Virus record (IMG/VR): IMGVR_UViG_2541047729_000013
Strand: one strand, 5' to 3'
Length of the DNA: 41,685 nucleotides
DNA from: a virus
Taxonomy: Duplodnaviria; Heunggongvirae; Uroviricota; Caudoviricetes
Position 1 is the stretch's first letter; the number at the start of each line of letters is the position of its first letter. This document shows positions 3,394 to 35,444 of this stretch, piece after piece. A program made the position numbers and the translations under genes. The notes under the pieces were generated by a model that was given only the letters and a program-made list of their open reading frames with translations, was not told the origin of the DNA and ran no database searches.

Positions 3394-6300
3394 TTAACGT
3401 TCTTCCAGAGACTGAACCCGCTCTTTTATCTTATCCATTTCTCTGCGCTGCCATGCTGCCTCGATATAGAATAAGAGATCAGGTCTGACCCCCCATCTAG
3501 ATCCTGCTGGCGTTATTTCAACGCGCTCAATGATGTCTTCTATTACCATCACTGGATTATCATCCTCATCAACAATGATGCTCCCGTCATTATCAGTCAG
3601 CGGCATTTCCCTTTGGCCAGTAATGACGTCATCATATACTGCGGGATAATCGTCATAGCAAAGAAAGGCATAGCGGCATGTTGTGCTTTCTTCTTCCATG
3701 AGTCCGTGAGAAATAAGAACATCACGAAGTTGCTGCGCGATTACACCATGATGTATCCTCGCCCCTTCTTCCCCCTTTATAGCGACAGCGTTCAGCCATT
3801 TATAAGCGATATACCTGACGTCACCCCAGGCATCCAGCAATGCTTCGTCAGGAGAGACCGGCTCTGTCTTTAATGTTCCGTCACTGGTAACCACAGGATT
3901 GGAGCCAAGATAAACTGTCGAGAACCTGTTTCCCGGACCACCAAGAGCATTTACATTATCAAGATAAGGTTTAACATCTCCGTTCTCAAAAAGATGTTCG
4001 AGTGCGTTATATACCGCGCGACGTGGAGTACTGCTTCCGGAACCATGCAACGTTATCATTGCACCATCTGCTGAAGACGTTGTTTCACCGCCGCTAACGA
4101 TTAATCTCTGAGCGGTAACATCATCAGACGGTACTTTCTTCGCAATAATGGCGTAATTACCCTCAAGTTTGACTTCCGCGCGAACTTGTCCTGATGTACC
4201 TGCATGGACAGTCAGTGACTGGACGGCAACATCATCTGTGAAATCAACGGGTACAGGAACCGTCCTCACGCCTGACGTCGACATAAAAGTAGGAAGCGTT
4301 CTGTTAGGAGTGGCTCCGTAGACAAAATCCCTTGAAACAAATTCTTCCTGTTTAATTTTCACCCTGAAACAATACAAATCAGCCGGGTGACCATCGTGAA
4401 AATAAGGATATTTTCTGTTGTTATCCCCTATGCTCCATGGGTTTAGAAAGTCTTCCCCACCGAAAATGTAGTACAGCCAGTTGTCTTTGATACAAACTGA
4501 ACCAACACCAACCGCAGAGTTAACTATTCCGCCCTGATAAATCTGATCAGTAACATTAACCCACTCTACATTATCCAGACTCCACTCATTGACGTTAACT
4601 CTGGTCATAAATGTTCTTGGATAATTTCCTGCATAACGGTTATCAGGTTCTCCTCCTTCCCACTCACCAAATGCGCGCTCACTGCCAAAAATAATCAGCT
4701 CATCGCCAACTTTGGCAAAAGGAAGGTTTGAGTGATGAACATTATTTGGGAAGCGAAGAGAATTCCATGATGTACCTAAATCAGAGCTTCTGTGCAATGA
4801 ACTACCGGGTTGAGTACTTAATGTCCCCCTGGTCGTCAGATACAGAATGCCATCATAATATTTTACACATGGCTCAGATGCATTCGCCTCATATTCTGCA
4901 GGTATGCGTCTGCGAACAAAGCTACCAGGAGAACCGAAAGCATCAGAGAAATAGAGTATCCCAAGCTCGCGTGGACCAATATCACCATTATGGTAGCCAA
5001 CAGCAAAACTGTTATCGCTAATCGTCGCAAAACTGTGAATCTCAGTAACAGGAGTGCTTCCGTCAACAAAAGAAGGAATAGTTCCAAGACTGGTTTTTCT
5101 CCATGGTGACGAGTGAAATGATGTACCAAAACTCCAGTATCTACCCTCGTTATTCTGATCCACATCCTGGGTATTTTGCGTCGTAACTGTAAAAGTATTT
5201 TTATCAATAACAGTAGTCACCGTCATATTCCCGGTAACACCTGTAACACCAGAGTTTGAGAAGTTGACAAAATCACCAGCAAATAATCCGTGATCAGTAA
5301 TGCGAATATAAGCGACTTGCTGATTTGCTGCTTTCGTTATACCACCATAAACGCGAAGGCTGCGACTCATTGGGCGATCCCACAACTCTGCAACCTGCAG
5401 TTTATTTCCGCTCACGGTCCGCGTCTCAATTACAGCAAAAAGGCGATTTCTGACAACCCCCATACTCATGCAGTGATAGTTAACTGTGGGATAGTTTTCA
5501 TGTAAATCTGTAAGCCATTCCGGCGTTGTCCAGGTCTTCCCGTCATCTCCTGAGCGAACCCATGCAACATGGAGGTTATTTACACCATGGCGGTCTCCAG
5601 CCATAAAAGGCGCATAGATGACATTGTCATATACAAACGTTTTATCCTGCGTCCAGGCGTTGTACCACGGTGTATCTGTAATTTTAAATAACTCTCCCTG
5701 GATAAAATCTTCAGAAGCATAAAAAAGAGGCTGGCCCGGTATTCTCTCAAATAAAAAACGAGCATTTTTAAATCGACTGACATCCGGAAGAGTTGATACT
5801 TTAAAAGTAAGCCCTAATCCGTCAATTTTATAACCTGGAGATGAGGCTTCAAGGCACGCGCTTATTGCAGTGGAATCGTCATTTATACCATCACCAACAG
5901 CTCCAAAATCTTTGGGGCTAATAGCATCACGCATTTTATCCTGGAACGTTCGGTACACAGCCCCAGAACCATACTGAATAAACCAACCAAAACCACCAAC
6001 AACCCCGGAGATTGCAGCATCGACATAATTACGCATTGAGCGATTATTTACAGCGTCCTGCTCAAATGATGGATCTGCAAGGTTAGAAATTTTGTTTTGC
6101 TTTGCATCGTAATATTTTGCAAGCAAAGATGGTTTCATCAATGCACGTCTGAACCACCCAAAACATTGCTGGATCAGCATCGTCAGGTAGTCAAAGGCAT
6201 CTTCATGCACTTCGGGGAAAAATTTTCCCTGATTGCGAAGGTCTGTCTCCTGCACTACATCAAGCACACGATCTATCGTAATTCGCCATCCAGTAGCAAG

Positions 6301-6513
6301 CGGAGACGGAAGAACCACAGAACCGCCACTATAAGTGCCCGCCCCAGTTACCGTATAACCGGTATCCAGAACCAATTCTGTTACGTTTCCGTTCAGGTCA
6401 GACACCTGAACAACCAGGTCTGATTTTCTGAAAACTCGAAAAGTATACGGAAACGATGTCGTAACGCCGTTACCGGTGTATTCGTTGTGGTCAACTTCGG
6501 TTGAGACCGTCAT
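3394..6513 (-). CDS. Tailspike / tail fibre with sialidase-like beta-propeller and C-terminal intramolecular chaperone domain
   Basis: 1039 aa; N-terminus MTVSTEVDHNEYTGNGVTTSFPYTF typical of enterobacterial phage fibre adaptor domains; two Asp-box motifs (SGDDGKTW, SSDLGTSW); C-terminal segment ending ...REMDKIKERVQSLEER resembles the autoproteolytic chaperone of endosialidase-type tailspikes; RBS GGAGAT upstream. Confidence 0.8.
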   Translation of the reverse strand: MTVSTEVDHNEYTGNGVTTSFPYTFRVFRKSDLVVQVSDLNGNVTELVLDTGYTVTGAGTYSGGSVVLPSPLATGWRITIDRVLDVVQETDLRNQGKFFPEVHEDAFDYLTMLIQQCFGWFRRALMKPSLLAKYYDAKQNKISNLADPSFEQDAVNNRSMRNYVDAAISGVVGGFGWFIQYGSGAVYRTFQDKMRDAISPKDFGAVGDGINDDSTAISACLEASSPGYKIDGLGLTFKVSTLPDVSRFKNARFLFERIPGQPLFYASEDFIQGELFKITDTPWYNAWTQDKTFVYDNVIYAPFMAGDRHGVNNLHVAWVRSGDDGKTWTTPEWLTDLHENYPTVNYHCMSMGVVRNRLFAVIETRTVSGNKLQVAELWDRPMSRSLRVYGGITKAANQQVAYIRITDHGLFAGDFVNFSNSGVTGVTGNMTVTTVIDKNTFTVTTQNTQDVDQNNEGRYWSFGTSFHSSPWRKTSLGTIPSFVDGSTPVTEIHSFATISDNSFAVGYHNGDIGPRELGILYFSDAFGSPGSFVRRRIPAEYEANASEPCVKYYDGILYLTTRGTLSTQPGSSLHRSSDLGTSWNSLRFPNNVHHSNLPFAKVGDELIIFGSERAFGEWEGGEPDNRYAGNYPRTFMTRVNVNEWSLDNVEWVNVTDQIYQGGIVNSAVGVGSVCIKDNWLYYIFGGEDFLNPWSIGDNNRKYPYFHDGHPADLYCFRVKIKQEEFVSRDFVYGATPNRTLPTFMSTSGVRTVPVPVDFTDDVAVQSLTVHAGTSGQVRAEVKLEGNYAIIAKKVPSDDVTAQRLIVSGGETTSSADGAMITLHGSGSSTPRRAVYNALEHLFENGDVKPYLDNVNALGGPGNRFSTVYLGSNPVVTSDGTLKTEPVSPDEALLDAWGDVRYIAYKWLNAVAIKGEEGARIHHGVIAQQLRDVLISHGLMEEESTTCRYAFLCYDDYPAVYDDVITGQREMPLTDNDGSIIVDEDDNPVMVIEDIIERVEITPAGSRWGVRPDLLFYIEAAWQRREMDKIKERVQSLEER

Positions 6514-6669
6514 GTTAAATCTCCAGATAGTCGCAGCACCCGTTGCGCCGCATATCTGGTTATTCTATTACCTGGAAAACCACATATGGATAGAAAGGCT
6601 GTAAATACGAATAGATATTACCTTTCAGGTAATTTGCAAAACGTGCTGGATAGCAAACAAATTATTTGC

Positions 6670-6689
6670 TACTGTATAAATATACAGTT
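6670..6689 (+). promoter_or_regulatory. LexA (SOS) box overlapping a -10-like element
   Basis: TACTGTATAAATATACAGTT matches CTGT-N8-ACAG with AT-rich spacer, a near-consensus LexA operator, about 20 nt upstream of the RBS GGAGAA of the 6709 gene. Confidence 0.7.
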
Positions 6690-6708
6690 ATTGCATGGAG
6701 AAGATAAG

Positions 6709-6966
6709 ATGCAGCAGTATCACTATCCACTGGAAGACGGATTTACCGAAAGGATTCACACGCCGGGAGGCGTCAGGTCACTGGTGGAGGGATCGCACTT
6801 GATGAAATTACTCCGGGATCTCGATAAGGATGGATTTAATGTCGATGGCCCACTTGCCGAACTGACTGCACTGATTAACTACGTCACCAGCTCACAGATG
6901 TCTATGCAGGATCTGCAAACACATCTCGACTATTGTGCCGAACAATTACGAAAACAAACCCGGTAA
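6709..6966 (+). CDS. SOS-regulated small protein, paralogous to the C-terminal domain of the Bro-N protein at 8352-9047 (candidate antirepressor)
   Basis: 85 aa from internal ATG with RBS; about 45 percent identity by eye between IHTPGGVRSLVEGSHLMKLLRDLDKDGFNVDGPLAELT...QTH and Bro C-terminus IHSPSGVLGLTENSLLMNLLNQLQEDGHDVSGAAAELT...QTH; LexA box immediately upstream. Confidence 0.6.
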   Translation: MQQYHYPLEDGFTERIHTPGGVRSLVEGSHLMKLLRDLDKDGFNVDGPLAELTALINYVTSSQMSMQDLQTHLDYCAEQLRKQTR

Positions 6967-6990
6967 ATTTAAAGGCCGCAAGAGCGGCCA

Positions 6991-7497
6991 TTAACAGTCG
7001 TAAAATTCCGGGTCCCACAAACTTGCATCGCGCGGCATGGATTCTAAATTTTTCAGCCGCAAAATTCTGTCACACTCGACAAGAAGTTTTTGTTTTTGTT
7101 CGTCAATTTCTACTTTTTTGTGTGCTGGCTCATCCCAGTAATCCAGAAGAAACGCATGTCGCTCAGACGTTACAAGATAAATCACATACACATCACTGGT
7201 TGGTATTTTTTTATGCTTGTTGGTGGTCTTGTCTTTCTTCCCGGATGCCCAGTTTTTCCAGCATTGTTCCGTACCGCTCTCACCAAACTTGTCAGTATAG
7301 TTTCCGATGTTTACGTGAACGTGGCGTATGTGATATTCCAGCATCTCTTTCGGTGGATCCCGAAACAGAGTGTCCTTTCCGAAATCCTTATGATGACCGT
7401 AGCGCCAGTGATCTATGAACGCGTTTTTGATAGGTATTAGCTCAGGGTCCTTCCCAAAAATTCCAGGGTGAACCAACCCCTGGAATTTATTCAGCAT
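6991..7497 (-). CDS. YafO-like putative toxin (ribosome-dependent mRNA interferase family)
   Basis: Start set at internal ATG (MLNKFQ...), overlapping the upstream gene by about 11 nt; segments PGIFGKD, HIRHVHV and VYVIYLVTSERHAFLL resemble recalled YafO segments PDIFGRD, HIHLANEN and HLVYCQGAFDEQAWLL. Assignment is from memory and needs an HMM search. Confidence 0.4.
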   Translation of the reverse strand: MLNKFQGLVHPGIFGKDPELIPIKNAFIDHWRYGHHKDFGKDTLFRDPPKEMLEYHIRHVHVNIGNYTDKFGESGTEQCWKNWASGKKDKTTNKHKKIPTSDVYVIYLVTSERHAFLLDYWDEPAHKKVEIDEQKQKLLVECDRILRLKNLESMPRDASLWDPEFYDC

Positions 7498-7942
7498 CGT
7501 CGTAGAGCTCCTGAGCCATATCTTCGGCAGTGCGTGCAAACATCCTGCGCGAGATTGCATGAGATTTCTCGACGGACATCTTTGGGACCTCATGCATAAC
7601 ATTTTTGGGAGTTGTGTAATAGCCTATTACAATTTTCACACCTGACTTATGATTAATATCAGCATAATATACTTCTTGTTCAGACGTTTCACGACGAACA
7701 TAATCTGCCAGTTTTCCACATTTAAATTCCCCTCCCTGATGTTTTAAAATCTCCTCAACTGCACTATTTTCAGTGAAATACCGAATAAGAAATTTCTGTC
7801 CAGACTCTTCAGCATGAGGTATAACAGTATTATTGGAAGCCCGAACAATGGCCTTACTCAATATTTCATGGTCTTTATTTTTTTCTGATTTCCTCAAATG
7901 CTGCATTACTGTAGCTCTCTTCGTGTTCACGGGCACCCCCAA
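7487..7942 (-). CDS. Uncharacterised protein overlapping and upstream of the YafO-like gene (candidate antitoxin or partner)
   Basis: 139-151 aa depending on start (track TTG at 7942 or ATG near 7906); acidic C-terminus AQELYDDAE; no recognisable HTH. My reading of the printed sequence near 7858-7862 gave one extra nucleotide relative to the track frame; track coordinates are used. Confidence 0.45.
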   Translation of the reverse strand: MGVPVNTKRATVMQHLRKSEKNKDHEILSKAIVRASNNTVIPHAEESGQKFLIRYFTENSAVEEILKHQGGEFKCGKLADYVRRETSEQEVYYADINHKSGVKIVIGYYTTPKNVMHEVPKMSVEKSHAISRRMFARTAEDMAQELYDDAE

Positions 7943-8038
7943 CTACCTCTAGGGTAAACATTCTATCGAAAGTATACGCATACTGGCAAAAAAATAGGCA
8001 GGTATTTTCTGAAATGGGATCAATCAAACCACATAGGG

Positions 8039-8083
8039 TTGAAATAACGTGAGTTATGCATTTATTATTACCTTTGCGGTAAA
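8039..8083 (+). promoter_or_regulatory. Candidate promoter (TTGAAA-N17-TTATTA) with overlapping ATTACC-N5-GGTAAA operator
   Basis: -35/-10-like hexamers with 17-nt spacing; operator palindrome at 8067-8083 abuts the -10; CCACATAGGG box at 8029-8038 is shared with the modules at 6580 and 26358. Confidence 0.45.
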
Positions 8084-8108
8084 TTTACATCGCACTCCTC
8101 TTGTGCCA

Positions 8109-8195
8109 TAGTAATCGGGCATTGGAAAAATCCAGTGCCGGGATTGGCGTCCCGGATTACTAAAAGGCGCATTCACCGCGCAAGCGGTTTTTTTA
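8109..8195 (+). ncRNA. Candidate small structured RNA / leader riboregulator ending in an intrinsic terminator
   Basis: Closing stem TAGTAATC (8109-8116) / GATTACTA (8155-8162) encloses two hairpins (GGCATTGGA-AAAA-TCCAGTGCC and GGGA-TTGGCG-TCCC); followed by ACCGC-GCAA-GCGGT plus T7 run (8175-8195). No ORF; 150 nt upstream of the Bro-N start. Confidence 0.3.
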
Positions 8196-8351
8196 TGCGT
8201 ATAGCACGGCCACATTCGTATTATGGTGGGCTGTGTGGGGGCACCGAAAGGTGCGCCGGGTCCTTTTAGCCGGTTACGCCAACCCTGCACAGTTCACCAC
8301 CAACCGATTGGCGTCGGTAGTGGTGATTAACCAGACTAAAAGGTAACCACT

Positions 8352-9047
8352 ATGACAGCTACAAAAAGCACGTCCATTTTTTCTTTCGAATCCCAAGCCG
8401 ATATACGGGTAATCGTCATTAATGGTGAGCCATGGTTTATCGCTTCAGATGTTTGTCGGGCTATAGGCATAGCAAATCATCGAGATGCTGTTCGAAAACT
8501 TGATGATGATGAGAAGGGCGTCGCTTCAACCGACACCCCTGGCGGTGAGCAAGAATCGATCATCATCTCCGAGTCAGGCCTCTACACACTGATCCTCCGC
8601 TGCCGCGACGCAGTGACACCAGGCACTATCCCCTACCGCTTTCGTAAATGGGTTACAGGTGAGGTTCTTCCTCAGATCCGCCGCACCGGAAGTTACATTA
8701 AAAACTCGCTCCCGCAGGAAGAACGCATAAAGATGGTTGCCGACCAGGTAGCCAACGCCACAGCATCAGCAGTGATGCAGGCAATGAAGATAGAGAACAA
8801 AACCTACAGTGCCCCACTGAAGCCCGGCTACCGCAGCCTGATTCATTCGCCGTCTGGTGTTCTCGGCCTGACGGAGAACTCACTGCTGATGAATCTGCTG
8901 AACCAGTTACAGGAAGACGGGCACGACGTATCGGGCGCGGCGGCGGAGCTGACCACCATGTTCTGCTACATCGTCGGTGTGAGCAAGTGCCTGCGTGATA
9001 TCCAGACGCACGCGGAGTACATCAACGACAAGGCTGGGTTCTTCTGA
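8352..9047 (+). CDS. Bro-N domain antirepressor-like protein
   Basis: N-terminal hallmark IRVIVINGEPWFIASDVCRAIGIANHRDAVRKLDDDEKGV; C-terminal about 65 aa paralogous to the 6709-6966 protein; RBS AAGGT upstream. Confidence 0.75.
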   Translation: MTATKSTSIFSFESQADIRVIVINGEPWFIASDVCRAIGIANHRDAVRKLDDDEKGVASTDTPGGEQESIIISESGLYTLILRCRDAVTPGTIPYRFRKWVTGEVLPQIRRTGSYIKNSLPQEERIKMVADQVANATASAVMQAMKIENKTYSAPLKPGYRSLIHSPSGVLGLTENSLLMNLLNQLQEDGHDVSGAAAELTTMFCYIVGVSKCLRDIQTHAEYINDKAGFF

Positions 9048-9112: not shown

Positions 9113-9129
9113 ATTACCTTACGGGTAAG
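9113..9129 (+). promoter_or_regulatory. ATTACC-N5-GGTAAG operator-like palindrome upstream of the 9188 gene
   Basis: ATTACCTTACGGGTAAG, same family as the immunity-region sites; about 60 nt upstream of the ATG at 9188. Confidence 0.45.
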
Positions 9130-9187: not shown

Positions 9188-9820
9188 ATGAAAACAAATA
9201 CAACAAGAAAAGCGATGCCATACATTATCCCAGAAGCAGATTTCGACAGAAAACTGAACATGTCTGAGAAGAACACTAGTCACACCGAAAGCTACTTAGC
9301 GAAAGGTGTGGTTGATTTCGTTCTTCCGGGATTCACAACACCTTATGGTTATCGCCTTGTAAAATCTTGTAATGGCGATCATTACAGAATGATTACTACC
9401 AGCGATACTCCAGAAACGGTGTATGCGGTTAAGTTAATCTTTCGGGAAGATATCGTCGAAGCTAAAAGAACATGTACGCAGATCATGGTATGGCGTACGC
9501 CTAATGTTATTCATGACCGTGCTGTTCATGGTTTGCCTCAGATTTTTTTTCAGTTCTTCCTAGAGCAATATGCGATCGTTGTATCTGATGAGCAACAAAC
9601 AATCGATGGGAGAAGATTCTGGGAAAGAATGATTTCTTGGGCTATAAACACCCCGGGATATAATGTATACGTTTCAGATGGCTCTGAAGAAGATAGACCT
9701 CTTAGCTTCATGACATCATGGGATGATTTCTATAGCCAGTGGGCTGATTTCTGTTGGGGCAGTGATAAAGATGTGCATACCCACAGACTACTGGTTATAA
9801 GCAAAGATAAACTGCATTAA
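9188..9820 (+). CDS. Hypothetical protein (210 aa), accessory/moron gene
   Basis: Strong RBS GGAGG; followed by a clean intrinsic terminator; AT-rich codon usage unlike the structural genes; no motif I can assign. Confidence 0.6.
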   Translation: MKTNTTRKAMPYIIPEADFDRKLNMSEKNTSHTESYLAKGVVDFVLPGFTTPYGYRLVKSCNGDHYRMITTSDTPETVYAVKLIFREDIVEAKRTCTQIMVWRTPNVIHDRAVHGLPQIFFQFFLEQYAIVVSDEQQTIDGRRFWERMISWAINTPGYNVYVSDGSEEDRPLSFMTSWDDFYSQWADFCWGSDKDVHTHRLLVISKDKLH

Positions 9821-26344: not shown

Positions 26345-26424
26345 TATTACCAATTTAACCACATATGATTTATTTATCGTAGATAGTTGACATTTAACGC
26401 ACAAATTATTACCTTTCAGGTAAC
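26345..26424 (+). promoter_or_regulatory. Repeated promoter/operator module (ATTACC-N7-CCACATATG ... TTGACA ... ATTACCTTTCAGGTAAC)
   Basis: Near-identical copy of the module at 6567-6633 (operator core ATTACCTTTCAGGTAA identical); faces the tRNA-Arg gene 320 nt downstream. Confidence 0.5.
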
Positions 26425-28954: not shown

Positions 28955-29625
28955 TGATTGCCATCCTGACGTTCTTTCAGTCTCTTCCTGGCTGCCGCTA
29001 TGCGATCAGCAATTGTCACATTCACATTAACATCCAGGCGTTCTTTGAATGCGTTGACGTCGACGTGCTTACCAATCAGTTCGAGGTTCTTCACCTTGTC
29101 AGGCCATTTAATTTTTTTGAGGATTGTCTCTATCGAATCCTCGTTCATGTTCATGATGGTCGATGACAGATCAAAGCCACTAAGCGTAGTGCGCCAGATT
29201 TTCGGCCACTCGCGGATTGGCTTAAGGCTCCCATCGTCGTTGAGGATGTCGATCACGTCCATCTGGTCGATCTCCACCAGGCGCATGAGAACGTAATCAG
29301 CACTGACGCGCATTCGTTTGTTGCGCTCCTCCATCAACTCGGCAATCCGTTTTTGAATGCGTTCATCGCGCATCATGACACTGGCTTTAACTGCCGCTGT
29401 ATTTGGGGAGAATCCTGCGTTAATCGCTGCCTGAGTCTGGTTTTCAGGCGTTTTGATGTATGACTGGCAATAAGCCTCCTGCATTGCTGTTAGTGGCTTA
29501 AATTGCGTTGATTTGCGTTTATAGGCTTTAGGTTCAGCAGGCATCATAACCACCGTGGTAATAGTTACCGTTGTGGTAATAGTACCATGCAAAATAAAGC
29601 CGCCATAGTTGGCGGCAGTATTCAA
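28951..29625 (-). CDS. Terminase small subunit
   Basis: Basic DNA-binding-like protein immediately upstream of TerL with 4-nt overlap; true start may be the internal Met pair near 29547. Confidence 0.65.
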   Translation of the reverse strand: MNTAANYGGFILHGTITTTVTITTVVMMPAEPKAYKRKSTQFKPLTAMQEAYCQSYIKTPENQTQAAINAGFSPNTAAVKASVMMRDERIQKRIAELMEERNKRMRVSADYVLMRLVEIDQMDVIDILNDDGSLKPIREWPKIWRTTLSGFDLSSTIMNMNEDSIETILKKIKWPDKVKNLELIGKHVDVNAFKERLDVNVNVTIADRIAAARKRLKERQDGNQ

Positions 29626-32304: not shown

Positions 32305-32383
32305 TTTACCTCTGAGGTAATTAAAAACCACATAAGACATGAAATCAATAGAGTTTATAATATTTTGTTACCTAACAGGTAAT
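32305..32383 (-). promoter_or_regulatory. Two operator-like palindromes flanking a candidate internal promoter
   Basis: TTTACCTCTGAGGTAAT (32305-32321) and GTTACCTAACAGGTAAT (32367-32383) between the P-like gene stop and the DUF1064-like start; TATAAT-like element between them. Confidence 0.4.
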
Positions 32384-34339: not shown

Positions 34340-34570
34340 TCATGAGTAGAAGAAGTATGCCAGTTCTGCTTTTGAGCGCAGCCATTGTCTTGTTTTACAG
34401 GCTTTAAAAAGCCCATTCATCAATACCTTACCTGGCATTTTGCGCTTACCTGTTAAGTGAGTCTGGATATAGTGACTCGTCGTTCCGGCTTCCTGTGCGA
34501 AGGCTTCACGCTCATCCGGAGTAAGTGCAAGCCAGTGCTTTTTGAAATCGAAATGTCCGTTATCGCTCAT
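34340..34570 (-). CDS. Cro-like HTH regulator
   Basis: 76 aa, divergent from the repressor gene across the operator region; HTH-like segment REAFAQEAGTTSHYIQTHLTGKR. Confidence 0.55.
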   Translation of the reverse strand: MSDNGHFDFKKHWLALTPDEREAFAQEAGTTSHYIQTHLTGKRKMPGKVLMNGLFKACKTRQWLRSKAELAYFFYS

Positions 34571-34610: not shown

Positions 34611-34670
34611 CCATAAGGTAACAAAAATCAAGGATAGTTACCTATGGGGTGCATTTACCTGTTGGGTAAT
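34611..34670. promoter_or_regulatory. Immunity-region operator cluster (OR-like), three ATTACC-N5-GGTAAT-type sites
   Basis: TTCACCCATAAGGTAAC, TTACCTATGGGGTGC and TTTACCTGTTGGGTAAT within the 154-bp repressor/cro-like intergenic region. Confidence 0.6.
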
Positions 34671-34724: not shown

Positions 34725-35309
34725 ATGAAAAGTATCCAGGACGTCCGCAGGCAAAATCTCAACGACTTGATCGACCGTGAATTCAATGGTGTTCAGACGC
34801 GGATGGCTGAAAAACTTGGAACTCAGGCAAATCTGGTAAACCGCTGGGCTCTTGGCAAGAAGGTTATCGGCGACCAGGTTGCACGAAAAATTGAAGCTGC
34901 CGCCAATAAACCCCGTAACTGGCTTGATATTGATCGCTCGCTTTCTCAGGAGGGTTTTCAGCCTGTCGGCCCGAGCGATATAGGTCAGCTGGCGGCTCAC
35001 AACCTGGAACGCTGGATGAGCGAAAGCCGCGACCTTTCAACGCAGGGAAAACTACACCGCGCATCCGGCGTCGCCCAGGTGACAATCAGCCGCCTGTTAA
35101 ACAATGAGGTCAGCGTTTCCATTTCCACCCTGGAGAATGTTGCATCCGCATTCGGGCGTCACGGCTATGAATTACTGATTCACCCGCACGACCCTGCGAC
35201 CATCAACTATGATCGCTCGCGCTACGCATTGTTACCCGAAACCGAGAAAGCAAAGATCGAAAGTTACATTGAATTTGTCATCAACCAGAACGAAAAAAAC
35301 AAACAATAA
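34725..35309 (+). CDS. CI-like prophage repressor without peptidase S24 domain
   Basis: N-terminal XRE-type HTH (TRMAEKLGTQANLVNRWALGKK) and a second HTH-like segment; no Ser-Lys autocleavage motifs; divergent from the cro-like gene; followed by a terminator. Confidence 0.7.
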   Translation: MKSIQDVRRQNLNDLIDREFNGVQTRMAEKLGTQANLVNRWALGKKVIGDQVARKIEAAANKPRNWLDIDRSLSQEGFQPVGPSDIGQLAAHNLERWMSESRDLSTQGKLHRASGVAQVTISRLLNNEVSVSISTLENVASAFGRHGYELLIHPHDPATINYDRSRYALLPETEKAKIESYIEFVINQNEKNKQ

Positions 35310-35365: not shown

Positions 35366-35444
35366 ATTACCTAACGGGTAATTTTTTTAACTCATATCTA
35401 TTGACATCAAACCAGATACGCATAATCATTACCTCAACGGTAAC
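35366..35444 (+). promoter_or_regulatory. OL-like operators and early-left promoter
   Basis: ATTACCTAACGGGTAAT (35366-35382), TTGACA at 35401-35406, ATTACCTCAACGGTAAC (35428-35444) and a further GGTAA half-site, upstream of the first early-left ORF. Confidence 0.55.

Follow-up and report, generated by a model that had tools for sequence, protein, structure and literature searches.

Two overlapping genes on the minus strand of the IMG/VR virus record IMGVR_UViG_2541047729_000013 (Caudoviricetes; the whole stretch of 41,685 nucleotides analyzed is hereafter called the window) probably make up a toxin-antitoxin (TA) module of type II. In this module, a YafO-type mRNA-cleaving toxin would be neutralized by the C-terminal tail of its partner, the two proteins would be coexpressed under the control of a phage regulator, and toxin output would be damped by an RNA hairpin. 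On profile evidence, the downstream gene encodes a toxin homologue of the YafO superfamily. The upstream partner, judged by its sequence, belongs to an uncharacterized family unrelated to the Phd/YefM or DinJ/RelB antitoxins. Both genes are part of a discrete promoter-gene-gene-terminator cassette inserted in a prophage. The coordinates of all features are collected in Table 1.

The gene arrangement follows the layout of type II TA operons, with two small codirectional genes, the antitoxin first, that overlap one another and share a single promoter-like site and a terminator-like hairpin. Between promoter and terminator, the insertion holds these two genes only. The overlap of about 11 nucleotides (nt) between two minus-strand genes reported in the first-pass annotation of this DNA is exactly 11 nt long (ATGCTGAATAA) and would couple the expression of both genes. 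An AGGAG Shine-Dalgarno sequence is situated 10 nt upstream of the toxin ATG, within the partner gene. A longer open reading frame (ORF) for the toxin (ATG 7602, 203 amino acids [aa]) was discarded, because RefSeq and the homologues start at the MLNKF/MPNKF position. The partner has three candidate starts, at ATG 7906 (139 aa), GTG 7930 (147 aa), and TTG 7942 (151 aa), which fit the 139 to 151 aa given at first pass, as does the acidic tail described there (net charge of −6 over the last 12 residues). The start at GTG 7930 is favored, since it is used in the coordinates of the RefSeq entry for the partner (WP_224171553.1) and since the peptide that it adds, NTKRAT, agrees with the N termini of ATG-starting homologues, which begin with MNTKR(V/I)T.

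The relationship of the toxin with YafO is weak at the level of single sequences and decisive at the level of profiles. K-12 YafO and the window toxin are aligned by BLASTP with 31% identity over 54 aa (E value of 0.006). A profile built from 41 toxin sequences retrieved just 79 proteins with an E value of ≤1e-3 from 1.84 billion cluster representatives, and the weaker end of this list includes canonical YafO relatives of ∼130 to 150 aa, which match K-12 YafO in phmmer with E values down to 4e-26. Comparison of the toxin family by hhalign with an alignment centered on K-12 YafO (this protein plus 9 relatives) gave a probability of 99.5% and an E value of 6.6e-23 over 125 columns. The motifs FG[KR]D, [RK]xHVH, TSD..hhY, and AH[KE] are collinear between the window toxin and K-12 YafO in a MAFFT alignment, and the 41 family members show little or no variation at the residues concerned. 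The invariant His and Arg residues of the toxin include H36, R58, H61, and H126. This profile evidence upholds the RefSeq name of the toxin, “type II toxin-antitoxin system YafO family toxin,” as well as the earlier remark that several segments resemble YafO.

The Pfam YafO profile (PF13957), proposed at first pass as a check, gave a divided answer. The window toxin itself does not match it, whereas 11 of 15 close homologues do so weakly (best E value of 1.6e-5), and precomputed PF13957 matches are recorded for a few members of the toxin family. Searched alone, the window toxin had no match in Pfam, NCBIfam, or PADLOC. A Foldseek search of the PDB with the YafO-like protein returned no significant match, and no YafO-type structure or complex turned up in searches of the PDB. 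YafO is an mRNA-cleaving toxin with the RelE/ParE BECR fold (PMC11980606). By homology, the window toxin would most likely arrest growth through mRNA cleavage.

The window toxin exceeds YafO by about 36 residues, which are accounted for by an internal insertion and a C-terminal tail of ∼20 residues. The insertion separates the HVH and TSD strands, and the segment that contains it (codons 63 to 98) displays the invariant residues C79, W80, W83, and G86 and a basic patch (KKDKTTNKHKK), with a net charge of +4. At the N terminus, the toxin has the same length as YafO, since the family-conserved FGKD occupies residues 39 to 42 in the toxin and residues 38 to 41 in YafO. The first-pass annotation had instead described a first conserved segment preceded by just a handful of residues, probably because its alignment was misplaced on a second, clade-specific GIFGKD at residues 12 to 17. 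The long basic C-terminal extension mentioned in the same place is not basic either, as residues 127 to 168 (the C-terminal 42) have a net charge of −2. Among alleles with ∼95% protein identity, the number of nonsynonymous substitutions per site (dN) in the toxin is 0.03 to 0.04, with synonymous substitutions per site (dS) at 0.9 to 1.7. The resulting dN/dS of 0.02 to 0.04 shows strong purifying selection on the toxin.

Conservation of the pair was assessed in 48 loci, comprising 47 IMG/VR contigs and one Serratia genome, the latter being the one locus that a profile search of genome contigs retrieved. In 45 of these loci, a gene is located directly upstream of the toxin and overlaps its start by 11 or 14 nt, and the pairing is seen in E. 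coli, Klebsiella, Enterobacter, Serratia, and others. Taken with the low dN/dS of the toxin at a dS of ∼1, this frequency shows that the pairing is more than chance. It also sustains, along with the operon anatomy in a variable prophage region, the earlier suggestion of a candidate TA module. An automated scan found no partner in the three remaining loci, which are more distant, and inspection of two of them revealed an upstream gene of 55 to 64 aa that is essentially the tail motif alone.

The partner presents two parts with contrasting evolution. Partner lengths range from 108 to 175 aa, and at least six N-terminal types can be distinguished, with an identity of ≤28% in the N-terminal part where the toxins are <50% identical; the 139-aa type of the window can be aligned (43 to 51%) with the MNTKR type. 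All clades end in one tail that can be aligned without gaps (VPKMSVEKSHAISRRMFARTAEDMAQELYDDAE, LPSMSREQVISLSDRMYSRTLEEMQGEMYDDAE, PRVKKMSFTEACALSRELSDSREERLLRASFDGPE, IKKLSSAESKEISFRQLNSLETHMKEEEFDVFE), and each toxin clade has one tail type. In the alignment of partner homologues, the last ∼36 residues are near invariant and the remainder is divergent. Among 31 unique pairs, the identities of tail and toxin are correlated (Mantel r of 0.73, p of 0.0005), and toxins that are ≥90% identical are accompanied by tails that are ≥91% identical and by N-terminal parts with identities down to 22%. At similar dS, the tail has a dN of ∼0.06 versus 0.54 to 0.59 for the N-terminal part, which has a dN/dS of 0.3 to 0.8 and exceeds either the toxin or the tail in dN by a factor of about 15.

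The invariance of the tail, its covariation with the toxin, and the existence of mini-partners together argue for the tail as the toxin-binding and neutralizing element and for the head as an accessory. The partner would therefore neutralize the toxin by direct binding through its ∼35-residue C-terminal tail, whereas the fast-evolving and exchangeable N-terminal part would be dispensable for neutralization. The monomer model of the partner has a predicted local distance difference test score (pLDDT) of 46 and is of low confidence except for a C-terminal helix. Such a model would suit an antitoxin that acquires its fold upon binding, with a tail that would probably be disordered alone and helical when bound. 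At locus L060 (positions 1630 to 2056), tandem mini-partner ORFs of 71 and 55 aa, each tail-like at its end, precede a long-form YafO toxin of 186 aa. By eye, the N terminus of the first mini-partner looks like the strand and helix of a ribbon-helix-helix (RHH) domain.

Searches for known relatives of the partner returned no match in Pfam, NCBIfam, PADLOC, or PDB sequences, and its only match was to phrog_9503 (function unknown). The 24 partner homologues had no Pfam or NCBIfam match, and eight other partner types gave only noise in domain-library searches and no Pfam domain. The tail was considered as a relic of the YafN C terminus, given the likeness by eye of …DDDFNDFKE and …EEEFDVFE, and this origin was rejected as unsupported. 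A hidden Markov model (HMM) of the tail gives YafN a score of −2.5 bits, which many of 5,000 shuffles exceed, and Smith-Waterman comparison with shuffles gave p values of 0.02 to 0.33 over six tail types. As no sequence search linked the partner to these families, the statement made at first pass that the partner has no resemblance to YafN or to Phd/YefM or DinJ antitoxins stands. Two further arrangements were rejected, as follows: a toxin-antitoxin-chaperone (TAC) module, considered in view of the conserved C-terminal tail, as the cassette has no third, SecB-like gene; and an RNA antitoxin, as an Rfam scan found none within the cassette and its matches at 8106 to 8304 belong to the neighboring operon.

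The promoter-like site of the cassette is the top-scoring one in the region, tied with a site on the opposite strand (8039 to 8068, +), and is followed by a palindrome that differs by one mismatch from TTACC-N5-GGTAA. Ten perfect copies of the latter are found elsewhere in the window, against 0.09 expected, mostly right behind −10-like hexamers and including two pairs spaced 62 bp apart. The copies at 6618, 8068, and 9114 precede, respectively, an 85-aa gene, the antirepressor operon, and a 210-aa gene. One palindrome (34655) and two degenerate copies lie between an HTH_3 CI-like gene (34725 to 35309) and a divergent cro-like ORF (34340 to 34570), and two palindromes are situated downstream of cI (35367 and 35429). 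Among the 48 related loci, 37 carry the motif with 0 to 2 mismatches upstream of the pair, including most loci of each toxin clade, irrespective of the N-terminal type of the partner. The set looks like the operators of a prophage repressor or Cro. No description of the TTACC-N5-GGTAA palindrome was found in the paper on phage vB_EcoP_ZX5 (PMC9782041).

As one member of a set of sites spread over the prophage, the promoter palindrome points to a phage regulator rather than to autoregulation by the antitoxin, and classical autoregulation is unsupported, since no DNA-binding domain was found in the partner types. The palindrome would cover the transcription start of the operon, and its sequence also marks the cI-cro region and no fewer than nine further promoter-proximal sites. 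The cassette and its neighbors are thus probably controlled by a phage protein, the immunity repressor or a Cro-like regulator, instead of or besides antitoxin autoregulation. Expression of the cassette in the lysogen is uncertain and possibly throttled, given that its promoter has the prophage's own operator-like site.

A second level of control may reside within the toxin gene, where codons 4 to 13 form a perfect stem followed by a U-run. This hairpin is kept in the centroid fold (z = −2.0), and it is retained throughout clade 1 and absent in clades 2 and 3. At locus L027, two amino acid-changing substitutions in the 5′ arm are offset by synonymous changes in the 3′ arm, and both base pairs are preserved. 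The hairpin possibly limits toxin synthesis relative to that of the antitoxin, via translation or transcription, and in clade 1 it would probably hold toxin output below antitoxin output.

The region from 6500 to 8400 shares 99.9% identity with E. coli K1 strains IHE3034 and APEC O18. In IHE3034, it sits in a prophage adjoining yfgI, whose gene content includes holins, a GH19 endolysin, and an endosialidase tailspike (window 3394 to 6513). Partial matches to phiV10, TL-2011b, and vB_EcoP_ZX5 assign the prophage to the phiV10/epsilon15-like (Uetakevirus-like) group of temperate podophages, of which the bicistronic type II module would be cargo. The entire region is present with 95% identity in the isolated phage EC.W1-9, and the cassette is found in 52 of 5,426 complete E. 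coli genomes (∼1%). When positions 6400 to 8500 are compared by blastn with loci L068 and L069, homology stops at 6960 and restarts at 8062, and in the partly matching records of ZX5 and phiV10, the flanks match but the cassette does not. An 11-bp direct repeat at the cassette boundary occurs twice in the window, where 0.05 copies are expected, and once in ZX5. It could represent microhomology used during acquisition of the cassette.

In related prophages of Klebsiella and E. coli (L009 to L011 and L007), the interval between tailspike and antirepressor contains a HicA toxin and a DUF1902 protein, DUF2335, DUF4760, and AntA-type antirepressors. The DUF1902 protein beside HicA is presumably HicB-like. 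Because the relatives hold other small cargo there, the interval is a spot of cargo exchange, in line with the first-pass placement of the pair in an accessory island or prophage hotspot. The tailspike of L040 and its relatives is 99% identical to that of the window across the 731 aa that the locus contains. The pair of the L040 group is a different allele, with a toxin that is 44% identical, a clade-3 tail, a partner of 108 aa, and an altered gene arrangement. A near-identical tailspike with a divergent pair shows that the cassette is exchanged independently of the receptor-binding module.

The closest well-known system is YafN-YafO of the E. coli K-12 dinB operon, with homologous toxins, collinear motifs, an N terminus of equal length, and the same order of antitoxin followed by toxin, closely spaced or overlapping. 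The window toxin differs in its size (168 versus 132 aa), with the CW..W..G helix insertion, the basic patch, and the C-terminal tail added, and the partner is not of the Phd/YefM type and has a tail that is not significantly YafN-like. Furthermore, the window pair is borne by a prophage and has a phage operator-like site, whereas K-12 yafNO lies in the LexA-controlled dinB operon. The Panacea/PanA antitoxins also undergo modular exchange but with the opposite polarity, where a conserved antitoxin domain is found with many toxins; in the window pair, the short tail and the toxin stay together, and the large N-terminal part is exchanged. HigB/HigA and RelE/RelB (5mje, 7nbu, 1wmi, and 6af3) likewise combine a small RNase with a protein antitoxin that restrains it. 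However, identity to these is 8 to 16%, Foldseek is not significant, the gene order of HigBA is reversed, and HigA and RelB have recognizable helix-turn-helix (HTH) or RHH DNA-binding domains, none of which is found in the window partner.

Uncharacterized partners are common among YafO toxins. Six plasmid-borne YafO-family toxins that were fetched (L062 to L067, on IncF-type and other plasmids) are each preceded by an orphan protein of 165 to 205 aa. These orphans are of at least three unrelated types, none with a known antitoxin domain or a Phd/YefM match. As in the window, an overlapping or abutting uncharacterized upstream protein replaces YafN in these toxins of Klebsiella, Enterobacter, and Pseudomonas, but the toxins have a canonical size (136 to 152 aa) and are located outside prophages, and their partners lack the tail motif and N-terminal parts of the window type. 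A survey of E. coli counted 6 YafO_toxin clusters and 13 partner clusters, with known antitoxins making up only 8% of the latter (PMC10790755), and in an older survey, the partners of YafO were either Phd or unclassified (PMC3141249). Since plasmid YafO toxins commonly have orphan partners, such a partner is not diagnostic, and the first-pass idea that a noncanonical partner signals a defense system is weakened.

Several points weigh against a type II TA module. The window toxin has no PF13957 match even at an E value of ≤10, and domain searches revealed no DNA-binding domain in any of the 8 partner types. Conservation of the tail is partly forced, because the overlapping toxin start constrains the tail codons; the ATG of the toxin is provided by an invariant Asp codon (GAT) and the G behind it. 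The palindrome at the promoter is a putative operator, imperfect (GGTAG) and missing in some relatives. The literature yielded no functional study (toxicity, binding, or RNA cleavage) of the pair or of a close relative.

A dedicated abortive-infection or anti-phage system is an unlikely explanation, although not a far-fetched one. The pair would be inactive in the lysogen, and the N-terminal part would sense an invader or be destroyed, freeing the RNase and leading to death or arrest. The variable cargo region, where relatives carry HicA/HicB-like genes and DUF4760, is consistent with such a system, and so is the fast evolution of the N-terminal part, of which six or more types are exchanged against a constant toxin and tail, a head-swapping pattern shown by sensor domains in arms races. 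In addition, toxins of the RelE/ParE superfamily occur in defense systems (PMC11980606). However, neither protein nor the two neighbors matched any of the 5,027 models of PADLOC-DB v2.0.0 at an E value of ≤1, and relaxed constraint explains the fast N-terminal evolution equally. Orphan partners being the rule for plasmid YafO toxins, the architecture is undiagnostic, and the operator-like site may silence the operon in the lysogen, which is where a defense is needed. An anti-phage role fits no better than a role in induction or infection or than mere selfish maintenance of the cassette. For the type II TA module, stabilization of the element, exclusion of other phages, and a function at induction are candidate roles.

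An improbable alternative is a function in the lytic cycle or at induction, in which the operon would be silenced by the repressor and turned on at infection or induction. The RNase would then reshape mRNA pools of the host or the phage, with the partner as a brake on dosage or timing, and the proposed outcomes are host shut-off, timing, and exclusion of coinfecting phages. Such control is suggested by the palindrome right after the −10 hexamer, which is common to the cI-cro region, to the c4/antirepressor promoter 80 to 110 bp away on the other strand, and to further promoter-proximal sites, and which accompanies the pair in most relatives with any partner type. The reservations set out above on the palindrome, namely, its imperfect local copy, its absence from some relatives, and its putative status, apply here as well. 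Moreover, the cassette is dispensable, as ZX5 and phiV10 are without it, and phage host shut-off RNases with an overlapping neutralizing partner are not known.

A repressor-gated TA module is also doubtful. Here, the immunity repressor would silence or throttle the operon via TTACC-N5-GGTAA, release would come only with the collapse of repression, during induction or after entry into a naive cell, and the swappable head would sense a competing phage or a host cue and so determine whether the YafO-type RNase is set free. Such a module would couple the lysis-lysogeny switch to an RNase checkpoint and would amount to a new antitoxin architecture, with a fixed 35-residue tail and swappable heads. 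It is very improbable that the genes are not a working TA pair, with a YafO-like protein that is catalytically dead or has another role and an unrelated phage protein upstream: the window toxin has no direct Pfam match, Foldseek is not significant, and the partner has no known domain, but the motifs in common with YafO, with their His, Arg, Lys, and Asp residues, are invariant over 41 sequences, purifying selection on the toxin is extreme, and pairing is strictly conserved, with a tail that covaries with the toxin, in E. coli, Klebsiella, Enterobacter, Serratia, and others.

The RefSeq name of the toxin and the canonical two-gene architecture are already known, and the pair is otherwise ordinary TA cargo. 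New at the descriptive level are the long-form YafO branch, the putative antitoxin family of tail plus heads, and the probable link to the operator network of the prophage. If the type II TA module is confirmed, the partners would represent an antitoxin family for long-form YafO toxins, made of a neutralizing tail of ∼35 residues and interchangeable heads of 20 to 140 residues, and the tail would offer a peptide of minimal size that inhibits a YafO-type RNase. In current annotation, the long-form YafO branch escapes Pfam and NCBIfam, and the partner is left as “hypothetical.” The operator-like site implies that a clone under the native promoter would behave differently with and without the prophage repressor, and the role of the module may be tied to induction and not to the resting lysogen.

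Table 1. Positions in the window of the cassette, its genes and control elements, and neighboring features
Feature	Position	Strand	Basis or remark
Cassette, 1,101-bp insertion relative to phage vB_EcoP_ZX5	6961..8061	-	ZX5 flanks 98 to 99.6% identical
Left copy of 11-bp direct repeat CGGTAAATTTA at cassette boundary	6961..6971	.	Repeat count
Right copy of 11-bp direct repeat CGGTAAATTTA	8077..8087	.	Overlaps operator-like site 8068-8082, neighboring c4/antirepressor promoter
Toxin gene, 168 aa, long-form YafO-family, putative RelE/ParE-fold endoribonuclease	6991..7497	-	ATG 7497, stop 6991-6993
Toxin internal segment, codons 63 to 98, ∼20 residues without YafO counterpart	7204..7311	-	Alignments and charge calculation
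Toxin C-terminal tail, codons 147 to 168, absent from canonical YafO, invariant R156 and W161	6994..7059	-	Alignments
Partner (putative antitoxin) gene, 147 aa from GTG 7930	7487..7930	-	ORF list; TAA 7487-7489
Last 35 partner codons HEVPKMSVEKSHAISRRMFARTAEDMAQELYDDAE, conserved C-terminal tail	7490..7594	-	Alignment, identity, and dN; putative toxin-neutralizing element
Sigma-70-type promoter TTGCCA-N18-TAGAAT	7960..7989	-	Consensus match only, 10/12 positions; ∼30 nt upstream of GTG 7930
Operator-like palindrome TTACCCTAGAGGTAG, one mismatch from TTACC-N5-GGTAA	7943..7957	-	Two bases downstream of −10 hexamer
Perfect palindrome copies	6618-6632, 8068-8082, 9114-9128, 26409-26423, 29565-29579, 32306-32320, 32368-32382, 34655-34669, 35367-35381, 35429-35443		
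Perfect 11-bp stem with 9-nt loop, toxin codons 4 to 13, then U-run	7458..7488	-	Inverted repeat, terminator-like flag
Intrinsic-terminator-like hairpin GGCCGC-TCTT-GCGGCC, then T-rich TTTAAATTTA	6974..6989	-	Consensus match only; begins 2 nt past toxin stop
a1/b1 targets	8106-8158	+	Rfam 39 bits, just under gathering score
isrK-like RNA	8119-8194	+	Rfam 74.5 bits
C4 antisense RNA	8219-8304	+	Rfam 77.7 bits

The cassette is back-to-back with the promoter of the antirepressor operon (8039 to 8068). Rfam revealed a P1-type immI arrangement (window 8106 to 8304, +) upstream of the Bro-N antirepressor gene (8352 to 9047). Further along, a 210-aa hypothetical protein (9188 to 9820, +) matches phrog_1349, with no match in Pfam or PADLOC, and has a perfect operator-like site upstream, at 9114. 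On the other side, an 85-aa gene (6709 to 6966, +) is convergent with the toxin and resembles the C-terminal ∼50 residues of Bro-N antirepressors, with a match to the phrog_1760 anti-repressor (E value of 4.5e-7) and a tblastn match to the neighboring Bro-N gene in relatives. This gene may be a stand-alone antirepressor C domain, and it is conserved beside the tailspike in ZX5, phiV10, and epsilon15.

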